Positions 16,077-62,586 of a stretch of DNA of 64,000 nt are shown in pieces. The stretch is from a virus, in the IMG/VR virus record IMGVR_UViG_3300045988_106448. The stretch is one strand, 5' to 3'. The notes under the pieces were generated by a model. It was not told the origin of the DNA. It did not search any database and worked only from the letters and a program-made list of their open reading frames with translations. Position 1 is the first letter of the stretch. Every line of letters begins with the position of its first letter. The position numbers and the translations under genes were made by a program.

Positions 16077-16946
16077 AAACTTTTAATGACTGCCTAAGAT
16101 GTATCAAAGGTTCTTTATATTAATTTTGGTAACTTTGCATTCAAATAATAATGCTATGGGGAAATTTGATAGAGAACCAAATTGTCAATGTCCAATTTGT
16201 GGAATTAAAATGTGGGTTAAACCTTCTTCTTTAAGAAAGGCGAAACATGGGGTTTGTTGTTCTATGGAATGTTCTAGGAAATTACGTTCAAATTTTATGA
16301 CAGGTGTAGGGAATCATCAGTTTGGGTTGACAGGAAATTTGAATAGTTCCTTTAAACATAATGAGAAAATAAATTCGGCAGGTTATGTTATGGAAAATGT
16401 TCCTGGACACCCTAAAGGTGGAAAAATTCGAGAAAGGTCTAAAACAACTTATATTTTGAAACATAGATTAATTATTGAAAGAAATTGTGAAAAGTTTCCT
16501 CAAGAATTATTTGAAAATATAGGGGGTTGGATAGTTTTAAAAGATTGTTATGATGTTCACCATATAAATGAAGACAGAACTGACAATCGGTTAGAAAATC
16601 TTGAAATTTTAACTCGAGGTAAACATACTGCAATCCACAATTTAGAAAAGACAATTATAAGAGATGATACTACGGGTAGAATAATTGGTGTCTTTAAACG
16701 AGGTGAATTGCTGGGAAGTCCAGAGGTGGATAATCAGCAGCCAAGCATTAGTAGTAATACTTTTGAAGGTTCAACGACTAACAGCCGAATCCAAACAGAT
16801 AATGCTGAGGATAGTAATGCTGACACGAGTGCCTCGCCCCTATTTATAGGGTGAAGATATAGTCTGAACTTTGCAAATAACCTAAAAGTAAAGCAAAGAA
16901 ATAATAGGATAAAGAGCCTATTAGTGTAACAACTCCACATAAATTG
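16077..16946 (+). mobile_element. putative group I intron carrying an HNH homing endonuclease ORF, inserted in dUTPase
   Basis: The ~870-nt insertion sits exactly between dUTPase motif III (GVIDA) and motif IV (DYRGDVGV). Exon 1 ends in T and the last intron nucleotide is G, as in group I introns. The insert is AT-rich relative to its flanks. Confidence 0.55.
16099..16854 (+). CDS. HNH homing endonuclease (HNH_3-type), intron-encoded
   Basis: 251 aa. Cys-rich N-terminal part, then DVHHINEDRTDNRLENLEILTRGKHTAIHN (HNH motif). Confidence 0.65.
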   Translation: MYQRFFILILVTLHSNNNAMGKFDREPNCQCPICGIKMWVKPSSLRKAKHGVCCSMECSRKLRSNFMTGVGNHQFGLTGNLNSSFKHNEKINSAGYVMENVPGHPKGGKIRERSKTTYILKHRLIIERNCEKFPQELFENIGGWIVLKDCYDVHHINEDRTDNRLENLEILTRGKHTAIHNLEKTIIRDDTTGRIIGVFKRGELLGSPEVDNQQPSISSNTFEGSTTNSRIQTDNAEDSNADTSASPLFIG

Positions 16947-43413: not shown

Positions 43414-45027
43414 ATGGACATTAAAGTATTATTTGACGATTCAGCCCGTGAAGGCTTGTATGAAGGGGTGAAACAAATTACCCGTGCCGTGGCTTCTACA
43501 CTCGGACCGAAAGGACACACGGTTATCATTGATAAAGGTTATGGCATTCCCCACGTGACCAAAGACGGGGTAACGGTGGCTCGTGCCTTTGATACGGATG
43601 ACACCGTGGCTCGCATGGGTGCAACCCTCGTTAAGATGGCAGCCGCTAAAACGTGTGACGAAGCCGGAGACGGTACCACTACCGCCACCATTCTTACGGA
43701 AGCTCTCATACGGTTAGGGATGGAAAAGATGCACCTCGTGAAAAATCCACAACAATTTAAACGAGGAATTGAACGTGCTTGTGAAGAGGCGGTAGCCTTC
43801 ATTGACAATTTGAAATATGAAATCGATCCTACGGATTTTACCCGGTTAGAACAAATTGCTACCATTTCAGCGAATGGAGACGTGGAGATAGGAAAGGTAA
43901 TTACCGGGGCTATTCAACAAGTGGGCAACGATGGGATCATCACCGTGGAAGAAGGTGATAACTCTTCTGAGATAACGGTTGATATCACGACAGGATTCCA
44001 ATGGTCAAAGGGGCTTGTCAATCCCTATTTCGTAACCGATCGAGAACGTATTGAATGCGTGTTAGACAATCCATACGTTCTAATACTAGGGCAGAAAGCC
44101 AATTACCCGCAAGAAATTCTTCCGGTGGTTCAAACCGTGTACACCGCTAAACGTAGTTTACTTATTGTCGCTCCAGACGCCTCTAACGACGTCATAAAGT
44201 TCCTCGTAACGAACATTGCCAAGGAAAACGGGTTAAAGGCTTGCTTCGTTAAAGCCCCCGGCTATGGACAGGTTCAGAAGGATATGTTGGAAGACCTAGC
44301 CGTGAAGATGGGCGGTAAGGTGGTTGGAGGGGAATCCGCTCAAACCATTGAACAACTAGGTACAGATTGGTTAGGTGAATGTGATAGAGCGGTTGTCACC
44401 TCTACTCAAACCACCCTAGTTGGAGGGGCGGGTACCGAAGAGGAAATTCAAACCCGTGTCAAGGCTATCAAGAACCAGATTGATGACACCTCTAACACCT
44501 TTGATAAAGAGAAGTACCGTGAACGCATTAGCAAGTTAACCGGGGGAGCCGCCGTGATACACGTTGGAGCCACTAGCGAGGTTGAGATGAAGGAACGCAA
44601 AGACCGAGTAGACGATGCCATAGCCGCCACACGTGCAGCCATTGACGAGGGCTACGTGCCGGGTGGAGGTATGATGCCATATCAGGCAGCACAATATCTA
44701 ACGGGTTGGACAACCAATACCACGGAGGATGAACGTGTGGGAATTGAAGTGGTAATCGGGGCTTTACGTGCACCTTTCCGTCAATTGTGCATGAATGCCG
44801 GGGTAAACCCTGATAAATACGAAGCGGTAATAGAAACCAAAATCGGAAGTGAGTGGCGCAAGGGGATTGACTTTTCTTCCATGTGCATCGTGAATTTGTT
44901 TGAGATTGGGGTAATTGACCCCGTTAAGGTTACACGCCTTGCGTTGCAGAACGCCGTGAGCGTTGCCATACAGTTCCTAAATACTTCGTGTGTTATGGCT
45001 GAGCCGCCTAAAGACAAGAAGTCATGA
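43414..45027 (+). CDS. groEL: GroEL-type chaperonin (Cpn60)
   Basis: 537 aa, collinear with GroEL: ASTLGPKGHTVIID, DGVTVARAF, AGDGTTTATILTEALI, the apical domain, then a C-terminal hydrophobic tail. Confidence 0.9.
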   Translation: MDIKVLFDDSAREGLYEGVKQITRAVASTLGPKGHTVIIDKGYGIPHVTKDGVTVARAFDTDDTVARMGATLVKMAAAKTCDEAGDGTTTATILTEALIRLGMEKMHLVKNPQQFKRGIERACEEAVAFIDNLKYEIDPTDFTRLEQIATISANGDVEIGKVITGAIQQVGNDGIITVEEGDNSSEITVDITTGFQWSKGLVNPYFVTDRERIECVLDNPYVLILGQKANYPQEILPVVQTVYTAKRSLLIVAPDASNDVIKFLVTNIAKENGLKACFVKAPGYGQVQKDMLEDLAVKMGGKVVGGESAQTIEQLGTDWLGECDRAVVTSTQTTLVGGAGTEEEIQTRVKAIKNQIDDTSNTFDKEKYRERISKLTGGAAVIHVGATSEVEMKERKDRVDDAIAATRAAIDEGYVPGGGMMPYQAAQYLTGWTTNTTEDERVGIEVVIGALRAPFRQLCMNAGVNPDKYEAVIETKIGSEWRKGIDFSSMCIVNLFEIGVIDPVKVTRLALQNAVSVAIQFLNTSCVMAEPPKDKKS

Positions 45028-47762: not shown

Positions 47763-47788
47763 AGGGGGCGAAAGCCCCCTCTTTTGTT
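47763..47788. terminator. bidirectional rho-independent terminator (agggggc-gaaa-gccccct flanked by T-runs on both strands)
   Basis: 7-bp GC-rich stem. CTTTTGTT follows on the + strand and TTTATTCTTC on the - strand. Sits between the convergent 46257..47762 (+) and dps (-) genes. Confidence 0.65.
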
Positions 47789-48275
47789 AGTTGCCCGCCG
47801 GGGTAACGTTGTAGGAACGATTCATCCACGCTTCTTTTTCCATGGATTCTATCATGTCTTCCAGAAAATTCAGGGTAGCCAAATCATTTTCAGGAATCTG
47901 AGCGTGAATATCACGAATAACACGCACCATTCTGTCCCAGTCATCCCTAATGTGTTTCCACATATCAATTTCCTGTGGAACGGCTTCCGTCATGGAAAAT
48001 TCTGGAATATGGTTATGGCTTAACATGGCTTCCATACTTCCTAACGGGCGGTGACCCAAAGCCCGTACACGTTCAGCCACGTCGTCAACTCGTTCGATTT
48101 CCGCCTCGTATAACTTTAACATGGCTTCATGATATGAACCAAATGATTCTCCTACCACGTTCCAATGGAACTGCCACGTCTTGAGCATCAAGGTAAAATG
48201 GTCAGCGAGTAAACCATTCAATAATTTAGCACTCCTTTCAAGTTCTTCAGGAGTTAATCCGGTATTAATACTCAT
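47787..48275 (-). CDS. dps: Dps-family ferritin-like DNA-binding protein
   Basis: LLADHFTLMLKTWQFHWNVVGESF...H....E.......D..AERVRALGHRPLGS...E matches the Dps four-helix ferroxidase pattern. Start revised to the MSINTGL ATG (161 aa). Confidence 0.7.
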   Translation of the reverse strand: MSINTGLTPEELERSAKLLNGLLADHFTLMLKTWQFHWNVVGESFGSYHEAMLKLYEAEIERVDDVAERVRALGHRPLGSMEAMLSHNHIPEFSMTEAVPQEIDMWKHIRDDWDRMVRVIRDIHAQIPENDLATLNFLEDMIESMEKEAWMNRSYNVTPAGN

Positions 48276-48418
48276 AATTAAAATGATTAGATTGTTTATA
48301 AACAAATAATATACGGTAATGACAAAATAAAGTTTGTAACCTTGTAACAAAATATTTTCACCCCACGTATTAGTATTGTGTTTATCACATAATAGTTTTA
48401 GGGTTTATTGTTTGTCAT

Positions 48419-50764: not shown

Positions 50765-51370
50765 ATGGATGCTAAAGAGGTGGATGCTGCCCTAGTAAAA
50801 GAGGCACTCGATGGGAGCCAAAAGGCATACGAAAAACTATTCAATAAATACCGCTATTCCTTGCGGTATTCAATTTTACAAATTGTGAGGGATGAGGAAA
50901 CCGCCAACGATTTACTCATGGAATCTTTTAGTAGAGCCTTTCTAAACCTGAAACGTTACACTACGGATTTCGCCTTTAGTACATGGTTATTCCGCATAGG
51001 GGTAAACTGTGCGATAGATTATAAACGCAAGCACGGGCGGGTAGTGATGTGCCGTATAGAACAGGACGATCCCGATAGGGAAGACCGCCCGATGTTCGTT
51101 ATTCCTGACCCTGACCGTACCCCGGCGGATGCTGCCATACAAAGACAACGTGTCGATTTAGTGCGAGGCGTTATCGCACAATTGCCGGAACCTTTCTACA
51201 CTATGGTTCACCTACGGTACATAGACGGGTTTGCCTATGATGAGATAGCCGATGAGTTAGACGTGCCGTTAGGCACCGTTAAAGCCTCGCTACACAGGGC
51301 GAAACAATTGTTGTGGGAACGCCTCGCTGAAGACAAAAGGTATAAGGAGATACTAACCGAGGAGATATAA
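50765..51370 (+). CDS. sigma-70 family (ECF-like) RNA polymerase sigma factor
   Basis: Region 2 (YRYSLRYSILQIVRDEETANDLLMESFSRAFLNL....STWLFRIGVNCAIDYKRK) and region 4 HTH (YIDGFAYDEIADELDVPLGTVKASLHRAK). Confidence 0.7.
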   Translation: MDAKEVDAALVKEALDGSQKAYEKLFNKYRYSLRYSILQIVRDEETANDLLMESFSRAFLNLKRYTTDFAFSTWLFRIGVNCAIDYKRKHGRVVMCRIEQDDPDREDRPMFVIPDPDRTPADAAIQRQRVDLVRGVIAQLPEPFYTMVHLRYIDGFAYDEIADELDVPLGTVKASLHRAKQLLWERLAEDKRYKEILTEEI

Positions 51371-51851: not shown

Positions 51852-52175
51852 ATGAATACCGTGGCGAAAGAACAAACCAAATTCGTGATGAGCAAAATGC
51901 AAATCCCAATACCTTCAGTGATAGAAGAATTAATTAGAAAACGTTACGCCGATTCCCCCGTGTTACACGTGGGTGTAACCATACAACGGGACGCCATTAG
52001 CCGGGATGGCGTGCCCGCATTGTACACCGTTAGTGACGTTGACCCGCTCCTATTGTTGGAGGAAATAAGGGACATTATTAACAATAAACGCCTCGATTTA
52101 GCCGACAAAATTATGGACGTGCACAAGGTATTACAGAAAATAGAAAAGACGCATGAAGCAAGTAAAGGTTATTAG
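51852..52175 (+). CDS. hypothetical protein
   Basis: 107-aa ORF. Confidence 0.3.
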   Translation: MNTVAKEQTKFVMSKMQIPIPSVIEELIRKRYADSPVLHVGVTIQRDAISRDGVPALYTVSDVDPLLLLEEIRDIINNKRLDLADKIMDVHKVLQKIEKTHEASKGY

Positions 52176-52527
52176 TATTGGTAGTTCTCCAAATTATGAA
52201 CAGGTGAACCACATACAAGAGTTGCTAAACACGGGATGGGAAATACAGGCTTGTACTAGCACGTATATTTTACTCATCTTAGAATCCACAGATCGAGTTC
52301 AAGAACTAGAACCTACCACTTTCAAAGAACGGTTGCAGATAGAGGAACAGGAGCTAAACATCAAGCTAACAAAACTCACACGGTTTCTAGACAAAACGTT
52401 CCTAACCGAGGACACGAAATTAGACCCTACACAGCTTGAATTAATGGTTGCTCAACAGCAACACATGGAACAATACCTAACAATATTGCACGAAAGAATG
52501 AAACTATTGGGCATCCCCACCGTATAA
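52153..52527 (+). CDS. hypothetical protein
   Basis: 124-aa ORF with a coiled-coil-like C-terminal half. Confidence 0.3.
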   Translation: MKQVKVISIGSSPNYEQVNHIQELLNTGWEIQACTSTYILLILESTDRVQELEPTTFKERLQIEEQELNIKLTKLTRFLDKTFLTEDTKLDPTQLELMVAQQQHMEQYLTILHERMKLLGIPTV

Positions 52528-52570
52528 TTCCGTACTGTTTTCATATTTATTAGATAATTAATATTTCTTG

Positions 52571-52599
52571 CCGCTCCCATGTCGGGGGCGGTTTTATTA
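52571..52599 (+). terminator. rho-independent terminator (ccgctccc-atgtc-gggggcgg + TTTTATTA)
   Basis: 8-bp stem (one G-U pair) and U-tract about 45 nt after the 52527 stop. Confidence 0.5.
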
Positions 52600-52783
52600 T
52601 GGTTGCCATTTTGGCGACCGGAAATAAGGCGTTTTAAGGGATTATTACGCCGTGGTAATACCCCAACATTACCACATATTACAGTACCTTAAACGGGCTA
52701 ACAATCGGTAAACAAAACGGGGATGTTATATTGGGGAAGGGAAATAGAGGTTGCGGCGGTTGCACCATACCACTACCAACAAC

Positions 52784-52810
52784 AAAAACACCGGGGTATA
52801 TACCCCGGTG
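52784..52810 (-). terminator. rho-independent terminator for the minus-strand gene (caccgggg-tatata-ccccggtg, T5 on minus strand)
   Basis: Perfect 8-bp palindrome. AAAAA to its left on the + strand becomes a U-tract on the minus strand. Lies downstream of the 52869..53171(-) stop. Confidence 0.5.
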
Positions 52811-52868
52811 CAAACACTATGTAAAACAAACCAAACAATAAATTCCTATTTTAGTGACCAGAAATAGA

Positions 52869-55248: not shown

Positions 55249-55836
55249 TTATTCAAGCGTTATCCTGTAATAGGTTTCCAATACCCGTGCGAAAATGGCA
55301 TTAATAGCGGGTGAAAACGCTTTTACAAGAGTATTCTCGAGCAAGTACGTTTCCTCAAAGTACTCCCGCAATAATTGTACTCCCATGCGGAGATCGGCGG
55401 CATCCGTGCAACAAAAGTACGGGAAAATAAAGTTTACAATATAATTGGCAGCGGGCGAAAAATCACCATGCCCCGGGGCGAACACGGGGTTTGTACCTAA
55501 TTGCGCTTGTAAAGCCGTTGTAATGGTGTTTACCGCTTGTTTGGTGGCGTACAAATCTACCCGCCTGTTAAGCAAATAAGGCGTTAAGCGTTTACGCACG
55601 TAATTAGCCGGGGTAACGGGGTACCCGAGCGGGCACAGTACCACGCTATTCGGAGTTACCCGTATTAGGGTGTACGGCACGGGGCATTTACCGTGCACAA
55701 AATACACCGCCATACCGGGTTGAATTAAGGTTTGCAAAGCGTAGGCAAATGTAGGGAGTTCCCCCTTAACGGGTGCGGTTGCGTTGTTTATAACTTGTTG
55801 CGGGTTAAACGTGTTTAGGGTGTTGTATGTTGCCAT
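55249..55836 (-). CDS. hypothetical protein
   Basis: 195-aa ORF. It is the last convincing minus-strand gene before the ORF-free region. Confidence 0.35.
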   Translation of the reverse strand: MATYNTLNTFNPQQVINNATAPVKGELPTFAYALQTLIQPGMAVYFVHGKCPVPYTLIRVTPNSVVLCPLGYPVTPANYVRKRLTPYLLNRRVDLYATKQAVNTITTALQAQLGTNPVFAPGHGDFSPAANYIVNFIFPYFCCTDAADLRMGVQLLREYFEETYLLENTLVKAFSPAINAIFARVLETYYRITLE

Positions 55837-56545
55837 TTTATTTAAGTTTTAAAGGTTATTACTGTTTGTTACCGGGGCTAGCCCCGTTGTGTTATTTGCA
55901 TATACAAATATAATACAATTATTTGGTACTACAATAAGTTAGCACAATTAATTCAACTTTTAGGGCTTATTTATATCCATTATAAACAATTCCAGCGGGT
56001 AGCGGCTATTGTATAACCGGGGGTTATTGGTTATGCGGATTAGGTATAACAAAAAGTTATTCTTAATATTATTGCAGCCGTTAAGGCTGCATATACAGGC
56101 GTGCCACCTATACGGGCACACGGGGGTCGTATAGCCCGGTAGGGGCGTTATTGGGGTGTAAAGGGTGTAACAGGTAGGCGGGGTATATTGGGACGTGCCG
56201 TGGATACCAAAACGAGCGGGAATTAATTTTGCTCCTAGCCAACCGGGGTAAAAATATTTTGGGGCATAACTTTTGGTTATCGGGGTATAACTAAAAGTTA
56301 TAGGAGTAAGGGGTAACGGACGTGGAGGGGGCGTGGTAACTACACGTACCCACAGGGGAATAGGGTGGGAACGAATGCGGGGTTGCCCCTGACAGGGGGT
56401 TATATTAGGGAATGGAATTGGTTTTGGGCGGTACCCGATAAAAACATTTTGGGCAACCCACAGCCCGATAGGGCTACGCATACAGGGGCTAGTAATAGTA
56501 TAGGGTAATAGGGTACACGGGTATCGAGGGGAGGTGTACGGGGTG

Positions 56546-56680
56546 TTTTGAGGGGTGCGGTTTAGGGTAGTTTGAGAGGTTGATAGGGTGTTACGGGCGG
56601 GGTTGATAGGGTAATTTGAGCGGTTTGGTTTAACCGCTAGGAACGTTTTTACGAGTGGTTATTTGGGGTATTTTGAGCGG
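56546..56680 (+). repeat. iteron-like repeats TTTGAG(N)GG x4 and TTGATAGGGT x2
   Basis: ttttgagggg (56546), tttgagagg (56571), tttgagcgg (56615), ttttgagcgg (56671). ttgatagggtg (56580) and ttgatagggta (56603). Confidence 0.5.
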
Positions 56681-56928
56681 TTTTGTTGCGGGCGTGTTTC
56701 CCAATACTAGCGCCAAAGCACGCAACACCCTCCCAATCCTTCCCCACTCAACCGCCCTGTAACCCCGCCAACAAGTCTCCACAGTTTACCCCCGTCCATT
56801 ACCCCTCTACCCTATGCCCGTGCCATGCCCCACGGTTATACTGATAACGTGCGGGCTTGTGTGTAGTTGGTGGGTGCGCTGCGTGTCCACGGCGCACCCG
56901 TGGAATGCGTGTGCCCGGTTTACAGACT

Positions 56929-57022
56929 GTAAGCAAAACCACCGCAAAAAGTTACAAATTGTAATCATTGCTAGGTATTACAATATATAAGCAAAACGGG
57001 TCATTTTGATTACAAATTGTAA
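56929..57022 (+). repeat. direct repeat (~59-bp period) of gtaagcaaaac...N12...TTACAAATTGTAA, each copy with a 13-bp palindrome
   Basis: taagcaaaac at 56930 and 56988. The perfect palindrome ttacaa-a-ttgtaa sits at 56952 and 57010, in an AT-rich island inside the C-rich arm. Confidence 0.55.
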
Positions 57023-57868
57023 GTTTAGGGATAAAATACGGATGCGGTTTTACCCGCCAAACATAGCCCCTAACAGATCGGAGAGAGTGTCACGGAGGGG
57101 TACACCACCCCCTCCCCCGGAGATCATGAACGTCGTGTAAATCCGGAAGCTACAATAGACGGCGTAAAGGGCTCGTGGAGGCAAAGAAAGGAACCTCCCC
57201 GAATAAAACCCCCGAGAGCAACCTCCTAATCCTATACAGACATTATAGAGATCTCCAAGAAACCCCTGACTCCCATCCCTAATCCCATTGAAACACGTCA
57301 GTCATTTGCAGTAGAACCCCTGAGAATAATCCTCAACCTCCTCCCCCGAAAACCAACCCCAACAATATATCTGGAGAACCCCTTGTCGAAACCCTGATAC
57401 CTACCCCTGCCTCTATTACCCCATGTAGCCCTATACCCCTACCCCATGTCATCAGTATCCAAAACACATTTTCTTTTTGTGATAACCTACTCCACCCCCG
57501 GATGATTACACGTGGAGAATCCTAGCGTCGATAAATCCTAAAACCGAATTTTCAAATTTTTAGAAATTCCGCCTGATCCGAAATTGTCATTTACCGATTT
57601 CACGGATGGTGTTGGAAGTCGGCTCGGTAGATGACACGCTTCTCCTACACACCCCTCTCCACGCCTCTTTTCGTCTAGAAAGAGAATAACACGGGTGTCG
57701 ACACGTGGACATACTGTTTGTCCACGGTGAAATAACGGATTCACTCTGAAGTCACATCGGTAATTGGGAACGTGATAGGAACCCTCCTATCGAATTCCTA
57801 TACCCCTCCCCGCACCACTATCGTTCCCGTCAGAATATCATATCATCGACAGATTTTCCTATCCAAAA

Positions 57869-58570
57869 TTGCAACTCTCCACGTCGACACGGCGTATAGG
57901 GGTTGTATTTAATCGCCTGTTGGCACTAACACTTAAAACGAGAAAGATTATGACAGACAATCAAGCACTCAATCTTGGCATGGCAATGCACCTCCTATTC
58001 AACTCTCTAAGCTACGGTCGCGACATCGTAAACAAATCCATGGAATGCCACAGCCATGACCGTAACAACACGGTCACGATCAACTACTCCTTCATCGGTG
58101 GACACCTCACTATCAATTGGGTCACCGTGGGTGATAACAGAGATGACGACATGACCATTGCTCTGCGACGGATGGTTGCCACACTCGAGGATGGGGAGGA
58201 CTCTACCACGCCCCTGTTCAACATCGATCGATGCAACGGTCTTTACAATAGTCCATTCCACACCCTAGCGGATGACGAGAAGGAATGGGCACGTGAAACC
58301 ATAGCAAATCACAACACCACGTATCAGCAGTGTTCACTTTCTATCATCGGTCGTGGACTGCCTCCGAGCACGCCAAAACATTCCCCCACGTTGACACCTT
58401 CCTATTTACAGCATCAACGCATGAAACTTGCCACGAAACTCTATTCCCAATTCCTCAGTGAGTACACGGGTTCGATCGCTGACGTGGAGGATGACAGCAA
58501 GAAATTGGCATCCGTAGCCGTGGCATCGGCTGATATACTTATCAACCAACTTAAATCTCAGGAATCATGA
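57869..58570 (+). CDS. hypothetical protein (first gene after the noncoding region)
   Basis: 233-aa ORF preceded by an AAAGATTATG start context. Confidence 0.35.
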   Translation: MQLSTSTRRIGVVFNRLLALTLKTRKIMTDNQALNLGMAMHLLFNSLSYGRDIVNKSMECHSHDRNNTVTINYSFIGGHLTINWVTVGDNRDDDMTIALRRMVATLEDGEDSTTPLFNIDRCNGLYNSPFHTLADDEKEWARETIANHNTTYQQCSLSIIGRGLPPSTPKHSPTLTPSYLQHQRMKLATKLYSQFLSEYTGSIADVEDDSKKLASVAVASADILINQLKSQES

Positions 58571-62115: not shown

Positions 62116-62586
62116 ATGAAGAAATTCAAATTGCAGACGATAACCATAGAGGGGGTAGACGGTACAACCCACACCCTACAAATGACCTCTCTTAGATACT
62201 CTCAAAGCGGTGAAGTTACAATAGTGGGGCAGTTAACCGACCAATCCAGTATTGATTACATAAACGAGCCGTTGGACATTCCAAAGGGCAAACTTCGCCC
62301 GACCATGTGGTGCAGCGCACTAGTACGGTTTAATCTAGACGGCGTTCGTAGGACTGCCGCCATAACGCATACCACGTGCCGGGCGTGGCGTATCATCAAT
62401 CTGGATTTAGGAGTGGCATGGGTTCCGGCGAACGCTTTCAGATGGTCAGAATCCTCTAAACAATTCATTCTTAACCCCGGTTACGAACCTGATTTCACTA
62501 CGGATGTTGCCGAAGGTATGATGCAATACCCGTATCGTATGGAAGTTGAATCCGAGGAATTACGTTACGATTATAAAATAGATTAA
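62116..62586 (+). CDS. hypothetical protein
   Basis: 156-aa ORF. Confidence 0.3.
   Translation: MKKFKLQTITIEGVDGTTHTLQMTSLRYSQSGEVTIVGQLTDQSSIDYINEPLDIPKGKLRPTMWCSALVRFNLDGVRRTAAITHTTCRAWRIINLDLGVAWVPANAFRWSESSKQFILNPGYEPDFTTDVAEGMMQYPYRMEVESEELRYDYKID

Follow-up and report, generated by a model that had tools for sequence, protein, structure and literature searches.

Replication origins of the iteron (theta) type with Rep_3-family initiators are known from plasmids such as pPS10, R6K, and F, and transcript-primed (R-loop) origins from ColE1, from oriF and oriG of phage T4, and from the mitochondrial CSB region. Temperate phages of the lambdoid group carry a different kind of control locus, the OL/OR regions, which are multi-operator immunity and regulatory regions. 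To our knowledge, almost no origin or early control region has been mapped in the uncultivated Bacteroidota phages of the gut. In phage T5, the iss is a 1662-bp untranslated region rich in repeats and palindromes, which is conserved among T5-like phages, lies beside variable genes, and contains pairs of DnaA boxes (10.1101/866236). The present analysis concerns a gene-free region of about 2.1 kb in a 64,000-nucleotide (nt) stretch of viral DNA, IMG/VR record IMGVR_UViG_3300045988_106448 (the window, in whose numbering all positions are given unless another contig is named). Tentatively, we consider this region most likely to be a DNA-level control region that would combine a replication origin with operators and leaders of the divergent early genes.

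A conserved non-coding region

The region lies between a leftward gene for a 195-amino acid (aa) protein and a rightward gene for a 206-aa protein (Table 1). The initial annotation had described a stretch without credible open reading frames (ORFs), and the resulting gap of 2113 nt proved to be six times the size of the second-largest intergenic gap in the window (341 nt). A homologue search seeded with the 206-aa protein returned 37 proteins, mostly 80–96% identical, and from the contigs encoding them the region was recovered 11 times in full length and several times in part. All 11 full-length relatives have kept a gene-free gap of approximately 2–2.4 kb. Of 88 distinct indel events in the alignment of the region, 19 are multiples of three, and this low proportion, together with 1-nt indels in the sole long ORF, indicates that the region is non-coding. 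The ORF itself, a Pro-rich minus-strand frame at 55960–56481 that had already been dismissed as a product of base composition, is not a real gene: it is broken by six 1-nt indels in different relatives, its variable sites lack codon periodicity (26/16/23, p = 0.30), and it owes its existence to the scarcity of stop codons on the C-rich strand. Nor does stop-codon reassignment account for the gap, since every one of the six frames contains TAA, TAG, and TGA.

The alignment is a mosaic of conserved blocks (A to F; Table 1) separated by indel-prone zones, namely the iterons, the point at 56828 where most relatives have an insertion, the palindrome module (56917–57045), and a repeat zone at 57190–57425. 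Most 50-nt bins of the conserved blocks are 93–99% identical among the 11 relatives, which is at least the conservation of the flanking genes. Indels of 8, 11, 12, 24, and 138 nt between 57425 and 57949 show that blocks E and F are non-coding as well. A partial, divergent contig (L018) has kept 56852–57975 at ~79–85% identity and 57430–57640 nearly identical, despite the fact that its homologue of the 206-aa protein is merely 41% identical. The region is thus real, conserved non-coding DNA, and it is unique in the window: the number of 12-mers shared with the rest of the window is about the estimated chance level, and no second copy of any block is present there. Searches against deposited phages and plasmids found no nucleotide similarity. 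Exact DNA matches came from human-gut metagenomes, and a metagenome scan with a conserved 24-mer returned further members of the same species-level group only, again from the human gut.

Repeats, palindromes, and polarized arms

Iteron-like repeats had been noted in the initial annotation, and four copies of GGGTAnTTTGAGnGG are present at 56541, 56565, 56609, and 56666, the sole copies in the window at one mismatch or fewer (consensus GGGTAnTTYGAGSGG; the observed total was reached by 0 of 100 shuffles). A tandem period of 23 nt was detected in the zone. Relatives have between two and five copies, with spacings of 23/24, 35, 44/45, and 57/58 nt and one of 48 nt, which approximate whole multiples of about 11.5 bp. 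Such phasing would set the iterons on one face of the helix, and sites in helical phase are expected to be recognized as duplex DNA, not as RNA. Four 15-nt cores in this arrangement fit the pattern of iteron-type origins, which have at least three direct repeats of ~17–24 bp in helical phase. The iteron zone is the least conserved part of the region, with 77–88% identity.

Two families of palindromes accompany the iterons. The first, ATAAC-N5-GTTAT, has only four copies in the window, where 0.16 would be expected and 0 of 100 shuffles reach four. The copies are spaced 33, 220, and 21 nt apart, and most relatives have a further copy within the insertion at 56828. The second family fills an AT-rich module 240 nt from the last iteron, in which the GC content is 30% compared with ~50% in its flanks. 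The palindromes of 13 bp that had been reported here are present, but the 59-bp direct repeat said to contain them is really a 58-bp tandem duplication (56920–56977 and 56978–57035). Its sites are TTACAG-A-CTGTAA (56920), TTACAA-A-TTGTAA (56952 and 57010), and the degenerate TTACAATATATAA (56978). Among the relatives, the sequence between the sites comes in at least three unrelated alleles, each of which keeps one to three exact (G)TTACAA-W-TTGTAA(C) sites in addition to degenerate copies. The allele varies independently of the 206-aa protein, as L006 and L007 have identical proteins and different alleles. With a center of 1 nt, TTACAA-N-TTGTAA would not form a stable RNA hairpin, which points to sites in duplex DNA.

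The palindrome module is also the only part of the region with detectable homology beyond the species group. In L019 (IMGVR_UViG_2891785506_000001), positions 2450–2551 hold a 103-nt module that is 76% identical to window positions 56924–57026 (nhmmer E = 1e-3). L019 is a temperate and otherwise unrelated phage with no tblastx similarity to the window, and its module lies between an integrase gene and genes for helix-turn-helix (HTH) and CI-like repressor proteins. TTACAA-N-TTGTAA recurs in other Bacteroidota-type phage contigs. These occurrences suggest either that the module moves between phages or that a shared factor, possibly one of the host, binds it. In bacterial and archaeal genomes, the two-palindrome pattern was found at 26 loci, mostly in unrelated taxa and none similar beyond the palindromes themselves.

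Between block B and the module is a GC-rich segment with two mutually exclusive hairpins (Table 1), which is conserved in relatives and of which the divergent L018 retains a shortened stem. Further right, blocks E and F contain the GTGTCGACAC palindrome (57695–57704) and the CGTGGAC...GTCCACG inverted pair (57704–57726), both as initially annotated, together with CGTCGACACG (57882–57891). The resemblance of these words to DnaA boxes was supported in part. T(G/A)TCCACG is enriched, four of the seven copies in the window falling within the region (Poisson 1e-4), but each copy has two mismatches to the consensus, and the consensus box TTWTNCACA itself does not occur in the region.

Near-DnaA-box words, repeats, and palindromes next to variable accessory genes give the region an anatomy like that of the T5 iss, so that a different DNA-handling signal has to be considered, such as an injection stop for two-step entry, a pac site, or a partition site. 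We regard this as very improbable. The region is 45 kb from the large terminase gene and not within a recognizable terminal repeat, and searches found neither a consensus DnaA box nor similarity to deposited phages or plasmids. The earlier suggestion that it represents packaged genome ends likewise finds no support, given that 11 independent assemblies cross it intact and no block recurs in the window. Five of seven long contigs end 19.7–21.8 kb downstream of the 206-aa gene, a further one extends to 24.8 kb, and the last is cut off at 10.9 kb. Any fixed genome ends would, according to these assemblies, be ~20–25 kb downstream and not at the region.

The G-rich and then C-rich arms are as first described. 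GC skew is +0.32 to +0.68 over 56000–56700 (+0.32 to +0.37 in block A) and −0.35 at 56700–56900, a swing from +0.68 to −0.35 that takes place inside 200 nt near 56697; it is ~0 at 56800–57100 and then −0.28 to −0.58 at 57100–57600. The left arm is dense in G-tracts, with 37 tracts of three or more G in 700 nt (~4 times the genome density), a count close to the 30.7 ± 2.6 predicted from dinucleotide composition. The regular spacing of ~10 nt originally attributed to these tracts was not found, the median being 15 nt and the arrangement aperiodic. Nor do the arms amount to degenerate reverse complements except at the level of short words: 114 inverted 7-mers were counted versus 68 ± 10 after shuffling, while the best inverted local alignment is marginal (score 30 versus 23.9 ± 2.5, with 6 of 200 shuffles reaching 30). 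A single long hairpin between the arms was ruled out, as they have a short-word vocabulary in common and the matching pairs are not nested. Prominent among these words is GGGGT(A/T), of which there are nine on the plus strand of the left arm (56000–56700) and 12 on the minus strand of the right arm. Block A contains these oriented words and small hairpins at 56074–56090, 56101–56119, and 56386–56398. In the repeat zone at 57190–57425, AACCCCYGA words recur ~55–60 nt apart by eye; the zone has long and short forms, the long one being present in 4 of the 11 relatives.

A G-quadruplex element, another of the roles initially put forward, found no support from either motif enrichment or conservation. 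Each arm contains two to four motifs of the form G3+N1-7/12 x4. The left-arm counts were reached in 79 and 120 of 300 dinucleotide shuffles, the right-arm counts are marginal (32 and 10 of 300), and relatives have substitutions inside the G-tracts.

The possibility of a large RNA similar to GOLLD or ROOL found no support in a scan of 4227 models (Rfam 15). Across 55700–58100, with E up to 10, the scan produced a single chance-level match to ftsZ-DE (15.6 bits against a threshold of 72.2 bits), and the only match in the window at gathering score is a group I intron at 16647–16888. A scan for tRNA and tmRNA found nothing in the region. Sliding-window (120 nt) folding gave mostly ordinary z-scores, the exceptions being at palindromes and on both strands.

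We consider it unlikely that the region functions mainly through lineage-specific RNA, in the form of one or several non-coding transcripts or structured leaders, such as a G/U-rich RNA of ~480 nt from the plus strand of block A, or a long 5′ leader in blocks E and F regulating the early operon at the level of transcription or translation. Blocks A, E, and F are long and near-invariant beyond the needs of discrete sites, and E and F are retained in L018 upstream of a protein with 41% identity, as might be expected of such RNAs. Block A folds more stably on the plus strand (−172 kcal/mol, z = −4.1) than on the minus strand (−126 kcal/mol), an exact −7 box lies on the plus strand at 56224, and in a 15-bp stem at 56266–56301 the mismatches and one substitution in relatives can be read as G-U wobble pairs on that strand. 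However, the minus strand of block A is also above shuffles (z = −3.2), as DNA palindromes would give, the −7 box lacks a −33 element, and no Rfam family matches. RNAalifold on 13 sequences, 90–99% identical in the conserved blocks, found zero compensatory pairs and several broken ones in blocks A and E, where the sequences are so similar that the power of this comparison is low; some compensatory pairs appeared in allelic or variable zones, in which the alignment is unreliable. The plus strand of the right arm (57100–57500) is nearly unstructured as RNA, at −4.5 to −13 kcal/mol per 120 nt, and the helical phasing and 1-nt-centered palindromes indicate recognition of duplex DNA.

Table 1. Coordinates of features in and around the non-coding region and at the Rep_3 loci of two distantly related contigs
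Feature	Coordinates	Strand	Remarks
Whole non-coding region	55837–57949		Between start of leftward 195-aa gene (55836) and ATG of rightward 206-aa gene (57950)
Host-type promoter −7 box TATATTTG, leftward block	55905–55912	−	Inside 30%-GC stretch 55880–55999
Spurious 173-aa Pro-rich ORF	55960–56481	−	1-nt indels, no codon periodicity, no Pfam/PHROG match
Block A, G-rich left arm	56011–56495		95–99.8% identity in 50-nt bins, 11 relatives; near that of neighboring coding DNA
ATAAC-N5-GTTAT palindromes (four)	56013–56027, 56046–56060, 56266–56280, 56287–56301		All in block A
Exact −7 box TAATTTTG, weak candidate rightward promoter	56224–56231	+	No −33 element; invariant in relatives
Iteron zone	56496–56690	+	G-rich short repeats; hairpin GCGGTT-TGGTTT-AACCGC (56620–56637); motif unique to zone
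Composition switch near 56697 and C-rich block B	56691–56835		93–98% identity; ~70-nt insertion after 56828 in most relatives
Block C, GC-rich segment	56848–56917		Mutually exclusive hairpins GGGTGCGC-N12-GCGCACCC (56872–56899) and TCCACGG-CGCAC-CCGTGGA (56886–56904)
AT-rich palindrome module	56920–57035		116 bp, 30% GC; 58-bp tandem duplication
Candidate −7 box TATGTTTG (57065 to 57058), then hairpin GCGGGTAAAACCGC and T-rich tail	57044–57065	−	Predicted; conserved in all relatives, where it anchored the alignment
C-rich right arm	57100–57500		GC skew −0.28 to −0.58; includes indel-prone repeat zone 57190–57425
Block D	~57147–57195		Conserved block
Blocks E and F	57425–57949		Upstream of 206-aa gene; 89–99% identity in 50-nt bins; retained in L018
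Rep_3 gene and iterons, L049	6050–6943 and 7043–7271	− (gene)	
Rep_3 gene and iterons, L050	5416–6309 and 6429–6718	− (gene)	

Distant relatives and a putative origin

A 212-aa protein encoded to the left of the region has homologues of 34–50% identity on contigs of 103–107 kb. Two distant relatives, L049 and L050 (104–107 kb), have a gene order partly in common with the window, in which a minus-strand ferritin-like gene, small genes, and a gene for a sigma factor of the extracytoplasmic function (ECF) type are followed by a non-coding stretch. Beyond this stretch, both have rightward genes that include homologues of the 212-aa protein and of the gene at 62116–62586. The next gene encodes HU, both in these two contigs and in the close relatives, and by this order it falls outside the window, past its right end.

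The non-coding DNA of L049 and L050 comprises 0.8 kb plus 0.8–1.2 kb around a minus-strand gene for a 297-aa protein, which matches Pfam Rep3_C at 25.7 bits (cut-off 21.1) and Rep3_N at 21.3 bits (just under the cut-off of 22.4), in the correct order. Beside this gene, L049 has an array of 10.5 tandem copies of the 22-bp iteron GGGTTTTATACCCCCATTTGGG that are 99% identical, whose counterpart in L050 is a 22-bp array that has diverged and includes inverted copies. The locus has the layout of a textbook iteron origin and is an explicit predicted origin for that phage group. Searches with the Rep-like proteins found no match among PDB sequences, and an IMG/VR search for the Rep protein found no relatives. 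The stretch in L049 and L050 also shows a milder switch of G to C skew followed by a TTACA-palindrome module, 72% identical over 50 nt to window positions 56920–56967, and has short words in common with the window, for example GTAATAGTATAGGG and GGGGTATAA / AAAACCCCC.

The role in replication put forward in the initial annotation thereby gains support from phased iterons, two palindrome families, a 30%-GC module, and the Rep_3 gene with 22-bp iterons in relatives. The phasing, the variation in copy number and allele, the duplex-type palindromes, and the position matching the Rep-plus-iteron locus together argue for a protein-binding DNA element. In the arrangement that we propose, the whole region would be composite cis-acting DNA that acts mainly via proteins on double-stranded DNA. 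Its core, at ~56010–57060, would be the origin of replication, where the phased iterons and the two palindrome families may assemble a complex of initiator or accessory proteins, and where the adjoining 116-bp, 30%-GC segment could open. In the left outer part, the host-type promoter would drive the leftward early unit; the right outer part would be a conserved leader or control block of 0.5 kb upstream of the 206-aa gene, a block whose transcription may start from a promoter not of the host type, given that the phage has an ECF-type sigma factor of its own. We infer initiator binding, a start of replication here, and the pairing of proteins with sites from the sequence data.

Several observations weigh against an origin at this position. 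Tblastn and profile searches with three Rep_3-like proteins found none in the 64-kb window, outside which lie ~50 kb of the genome, and the iterons form a small, degenerate set in comparison with the array of L049. The link to L049 and L050 is one of partial gene order and architecture, the 212-aa gene being on the other side and inverted, and when nhmmer profiles of each conserved block were run against the distant relatives, the palindrome module alone was detectable. In temperate L019, this module is not obviously part of an origin. The palindromes occur in other distant relatives (L059–L064) as well, where a 2-kb gap is lacking; a diverged Rep is encoded elsewhere in one of these. Cumulative GC skew in the window shows a local bump with no genome-scale inflection at the region, one of the outcomes that the initial annotation had listed as refuting; as evidence this is weak, since skew here goes with the orientation of the genes. 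Blocks A, E, and F hold ~1 kb of near-invariant sequence, more than binding sites need, which leaves room for RNA functions. Binding sites alone account neither for this sequence nor for the mirror-image G-tract polarity of the arms, which keeps the RNA and the transcription-only alternatives in view.

L049 and L050 also bring up the possibility that the region is functionless, that is, decayed coding sequence or a rearrangement scar such as the remains of a lost Rep gene. Their Rep gene is on the minus strand where the window has C-rich non-coding DNA, and the gene order around the region has been rearranged. No residual protein similarity was found, however, even at E = 10, block conservation equals that of coding DNA, and the site families are enriched and regularly spaced, all of which makes decay highly improbable.

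The region was initially held to be a point of transcriptional divergence, and this was borne out for gene orientation, with a leftward block on one side and a rightward block on the other. Host promoters of the Bacteroidota kind, pairing a −7 box TAnnTTTG with a −33 element TTTG, are evident in intergenic regions of the window, and such −7 boxes precede many of its genes. The scan was made for TAnnTTTG, a canonical sigma-70 scan being uninformative for a Bacteroidota host. The TATATTTG box of the leftward block is conserved in all relatives, even those without the 195-aa gene. Upstream of 57950, the scan found no canonical host-type promoter. An ECF-type sigma-70 family protein is encoded at 50765–51370 (plus strand; Pfam Sigma70_r2, Sigma70_r4_2, and Sigma70_ECF) and is conserved in L049 and L050; it may read promoters not of the host type, which could explain the lack of a canonical promoter ahead of gene 57950.

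These features raise the alternative of a purely transcriptional switch without an origin, consisting of operator arrays for a phage repressor or activator, ECF sigma promoters, and long C-rich leaders that could serve as Rho-loading or attenuation zones in the control of the divergent early genes. Rho-utilization sites are C-rich, G-poor, unstructured RNA, and a rightward transcript of 57100–57500 would have these properties. The position between divergent gene blocks, the multiple palindromes, and the allelic replacement of the module all resemble immunity regions; a homologous module is next to CI-like and HTH genes in L019, and in L021 a site pair of the TTACAAATTGTAA type is beside an HTH-like repressor gene (by eye). 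The phage's ECF-type sigma and the lack of a host-type promoter before gene 57950 are also in keeping with such a switch. Against it, no HTH or repressor-like protein was detected among the conserved neighbors, the module allele changes in L006 and L007 with no change in the 206-aa protein, and 2 kb is very large for an operator region. A switch would, moreover, leave unexplained the phased iterons of variable copy number and the Rep_3-plus-iteron arrangement in relatives, and we judge it, too, to be unlikely.

A more speculative proposal, which we think distinctly unlikely, addresses the arms directly and takes their mirror-image polarity itself to be functional. Inward G-rich RNAs from both sides, begun at the candidate −7 boxes at 56224 (plus) and 57065 (minus) or at others, would form stable R-loops on the C-rich templates and prime replication independently of Rep; or else block A would be a new structured RNA of ~480 nt, peculiar to this lineage of gut phages. 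Under transcript priming, the iterons and palindromes would be regulatory add-ons. We know of no transcript-primed, initiator-independent origin of this kind described for Bacteroidota phages.

The proposed origin and control region would make the locus useful in several respects. It offers a concrete cis-element, with defined site families and natural allelic variants, for tests of binding and origin function. If it is an origin, it could anchor estimates of activity from peak-to-trough read depth for this phage group in metagenomes and could supply parts for Bacteroides phage engineering. The mirror-image arms and the ~1 kb of near-invariant sequence are where novelty, be it an R-loop origin or a new RNA, could remain.

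Genomic setting and comparison with known systems

The window is part of a large, compact phage genome, related contigs being 111–118 kb in length. Genes in the first 52 kb are nearly all on the plus strand and include those for a Pol III alpha-type DNA polymerase, a DnaB-like helicase, an NAD-dependent ligase, a ribonucleotide reductase, GroEL, an SbcC-like nuclease, and the large terminase. The nearest cultured relatives are phages of Cellulophaga, Tenacibaculum, and Chryseobacterium, with polymerase identities of merely 36–39%, and the phage is an uncultivated human-gut Bacteroidota phage. At the left edge of the region, the gene at 55249–55836 (minus strand) occupies a variable cargo slot. 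It is missing from L001, L006, L007, L009, and L014; in other relatives, unrelated ORFans of 90, 92, 133, or 257 aa take its place or accompany it, none with a Pfam match. The proteins flanking the region had no Pfam or PHROG match and no tblastn match in phage records, and the AlphaFold2 model of the 206-aa protein (mean predicted local distance difference test score, 52.5) is too poor for a fold search.

Other loci in the window were also recorded. The second-largest intergenic gap (52528–52868, 341 nt) is where the run of plus-strand genes meets the minus-strand block, and it contains several GC-rich hairpins and a G-tract box, GGGGATGTTATATTGGGG, like those of the G-rich left arm. Among small ORFan genes immediately to the left of the region, the protein of 52153–52527 (plus strand) matches PF21825, which is named crAss001_48-related in Pfam and Sequestin in another tool; its surroundings suggest an accessory or anti-defense neighborhood. 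The group I catalytic intron (plus strand; Rfam RF00028, 58.7 bits, E = 2.6e-12) overlaps with the last part of the ORF at 16099–16854, and positions 16690–16870 are ~85% identical to the locus of crAssphage (Carjivirus communis) annotated as a dUTPase and an intron-encoded HNH endonuclease, a likeness that suggests intron exchange between unrelated gut phages. The GroEL chaperonin gene is at 43414–45027 (plus strand; PHROG 5725, E = 4e-141), and the ferritin-like (Dps-type) gene at 47787–48350 (minus strand; Pfam Ferritin, E = 1e-20) is at the same relative position in L049 and L050.

Among known systems, iteron origins resemble the region in having direct repeats of ~15–23 bp in helical phase, with copy number varying between strains, and inverted repeats and near-DnaA-box words around them, and the position of the region matches the L049/L050 locus. 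The AT-rich segment of the region, 240 nt from the last iteron and filled with palindromes, may correspond to the one that adjoins the repeats of such origins. Unlike these origins, the region has no recognizable initiator gene in the window and only four degenerate iterons compared with 10.5 near-perfect ones in L049, and the ~2 kb over which it is conserved and non-coding, with G-tract arms in mirror image, far exceeds what classical origins contain. R-loop origins resemble it, by analogy only, in that a candidate promoter (56224, plus strand) is followed by a marked excess of G on one strand, an arrangement mirrored on the other side, but the promoters in the region are weak or putative and quadruplex motifs are not enriched.

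Similarity to lambdoid immunity regions of the OL/OR type consists in several copies of a short palindrome between divergent units and in exchangeable module alleles. The differences are that no repressor gene was detected nearby, that the allele does not co-vary with the 206-aa protein, and that the module makes up 116 bp of 2.1 kb. The large structured RNAs GOLLD, ROOL, and HEARO of phages and bacteria belong to a similar size class, and the gap here lies in a phage genome, but the region differs from these in the lack of an Rfam match, in fold signals on both strands, and in that no covariation was seen.

The T5 iss differs in being within a terminal repeat (at 7.9% of the genome), near the end that enters first, with eight organized DnaA boxes, paired in inverted repeats; the present region lies away from the contig ends, lacks a consensus DnaA box, and has no sequence similarity to it. 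The two have in common an ORF-free stretch of 1.7–2.1 kb in a large phage of lytic type, conservation exceeding that of neighboring accessory genes, and DnaA-box-like words, and by analogy the iss is the closest described look-alike of the region. On present evidence, the region is best filed as a phage origin and control region in which iterons and palindromes abound, which lacks an adjacent initiator, and whose G-tract arms are mirror-polarized.

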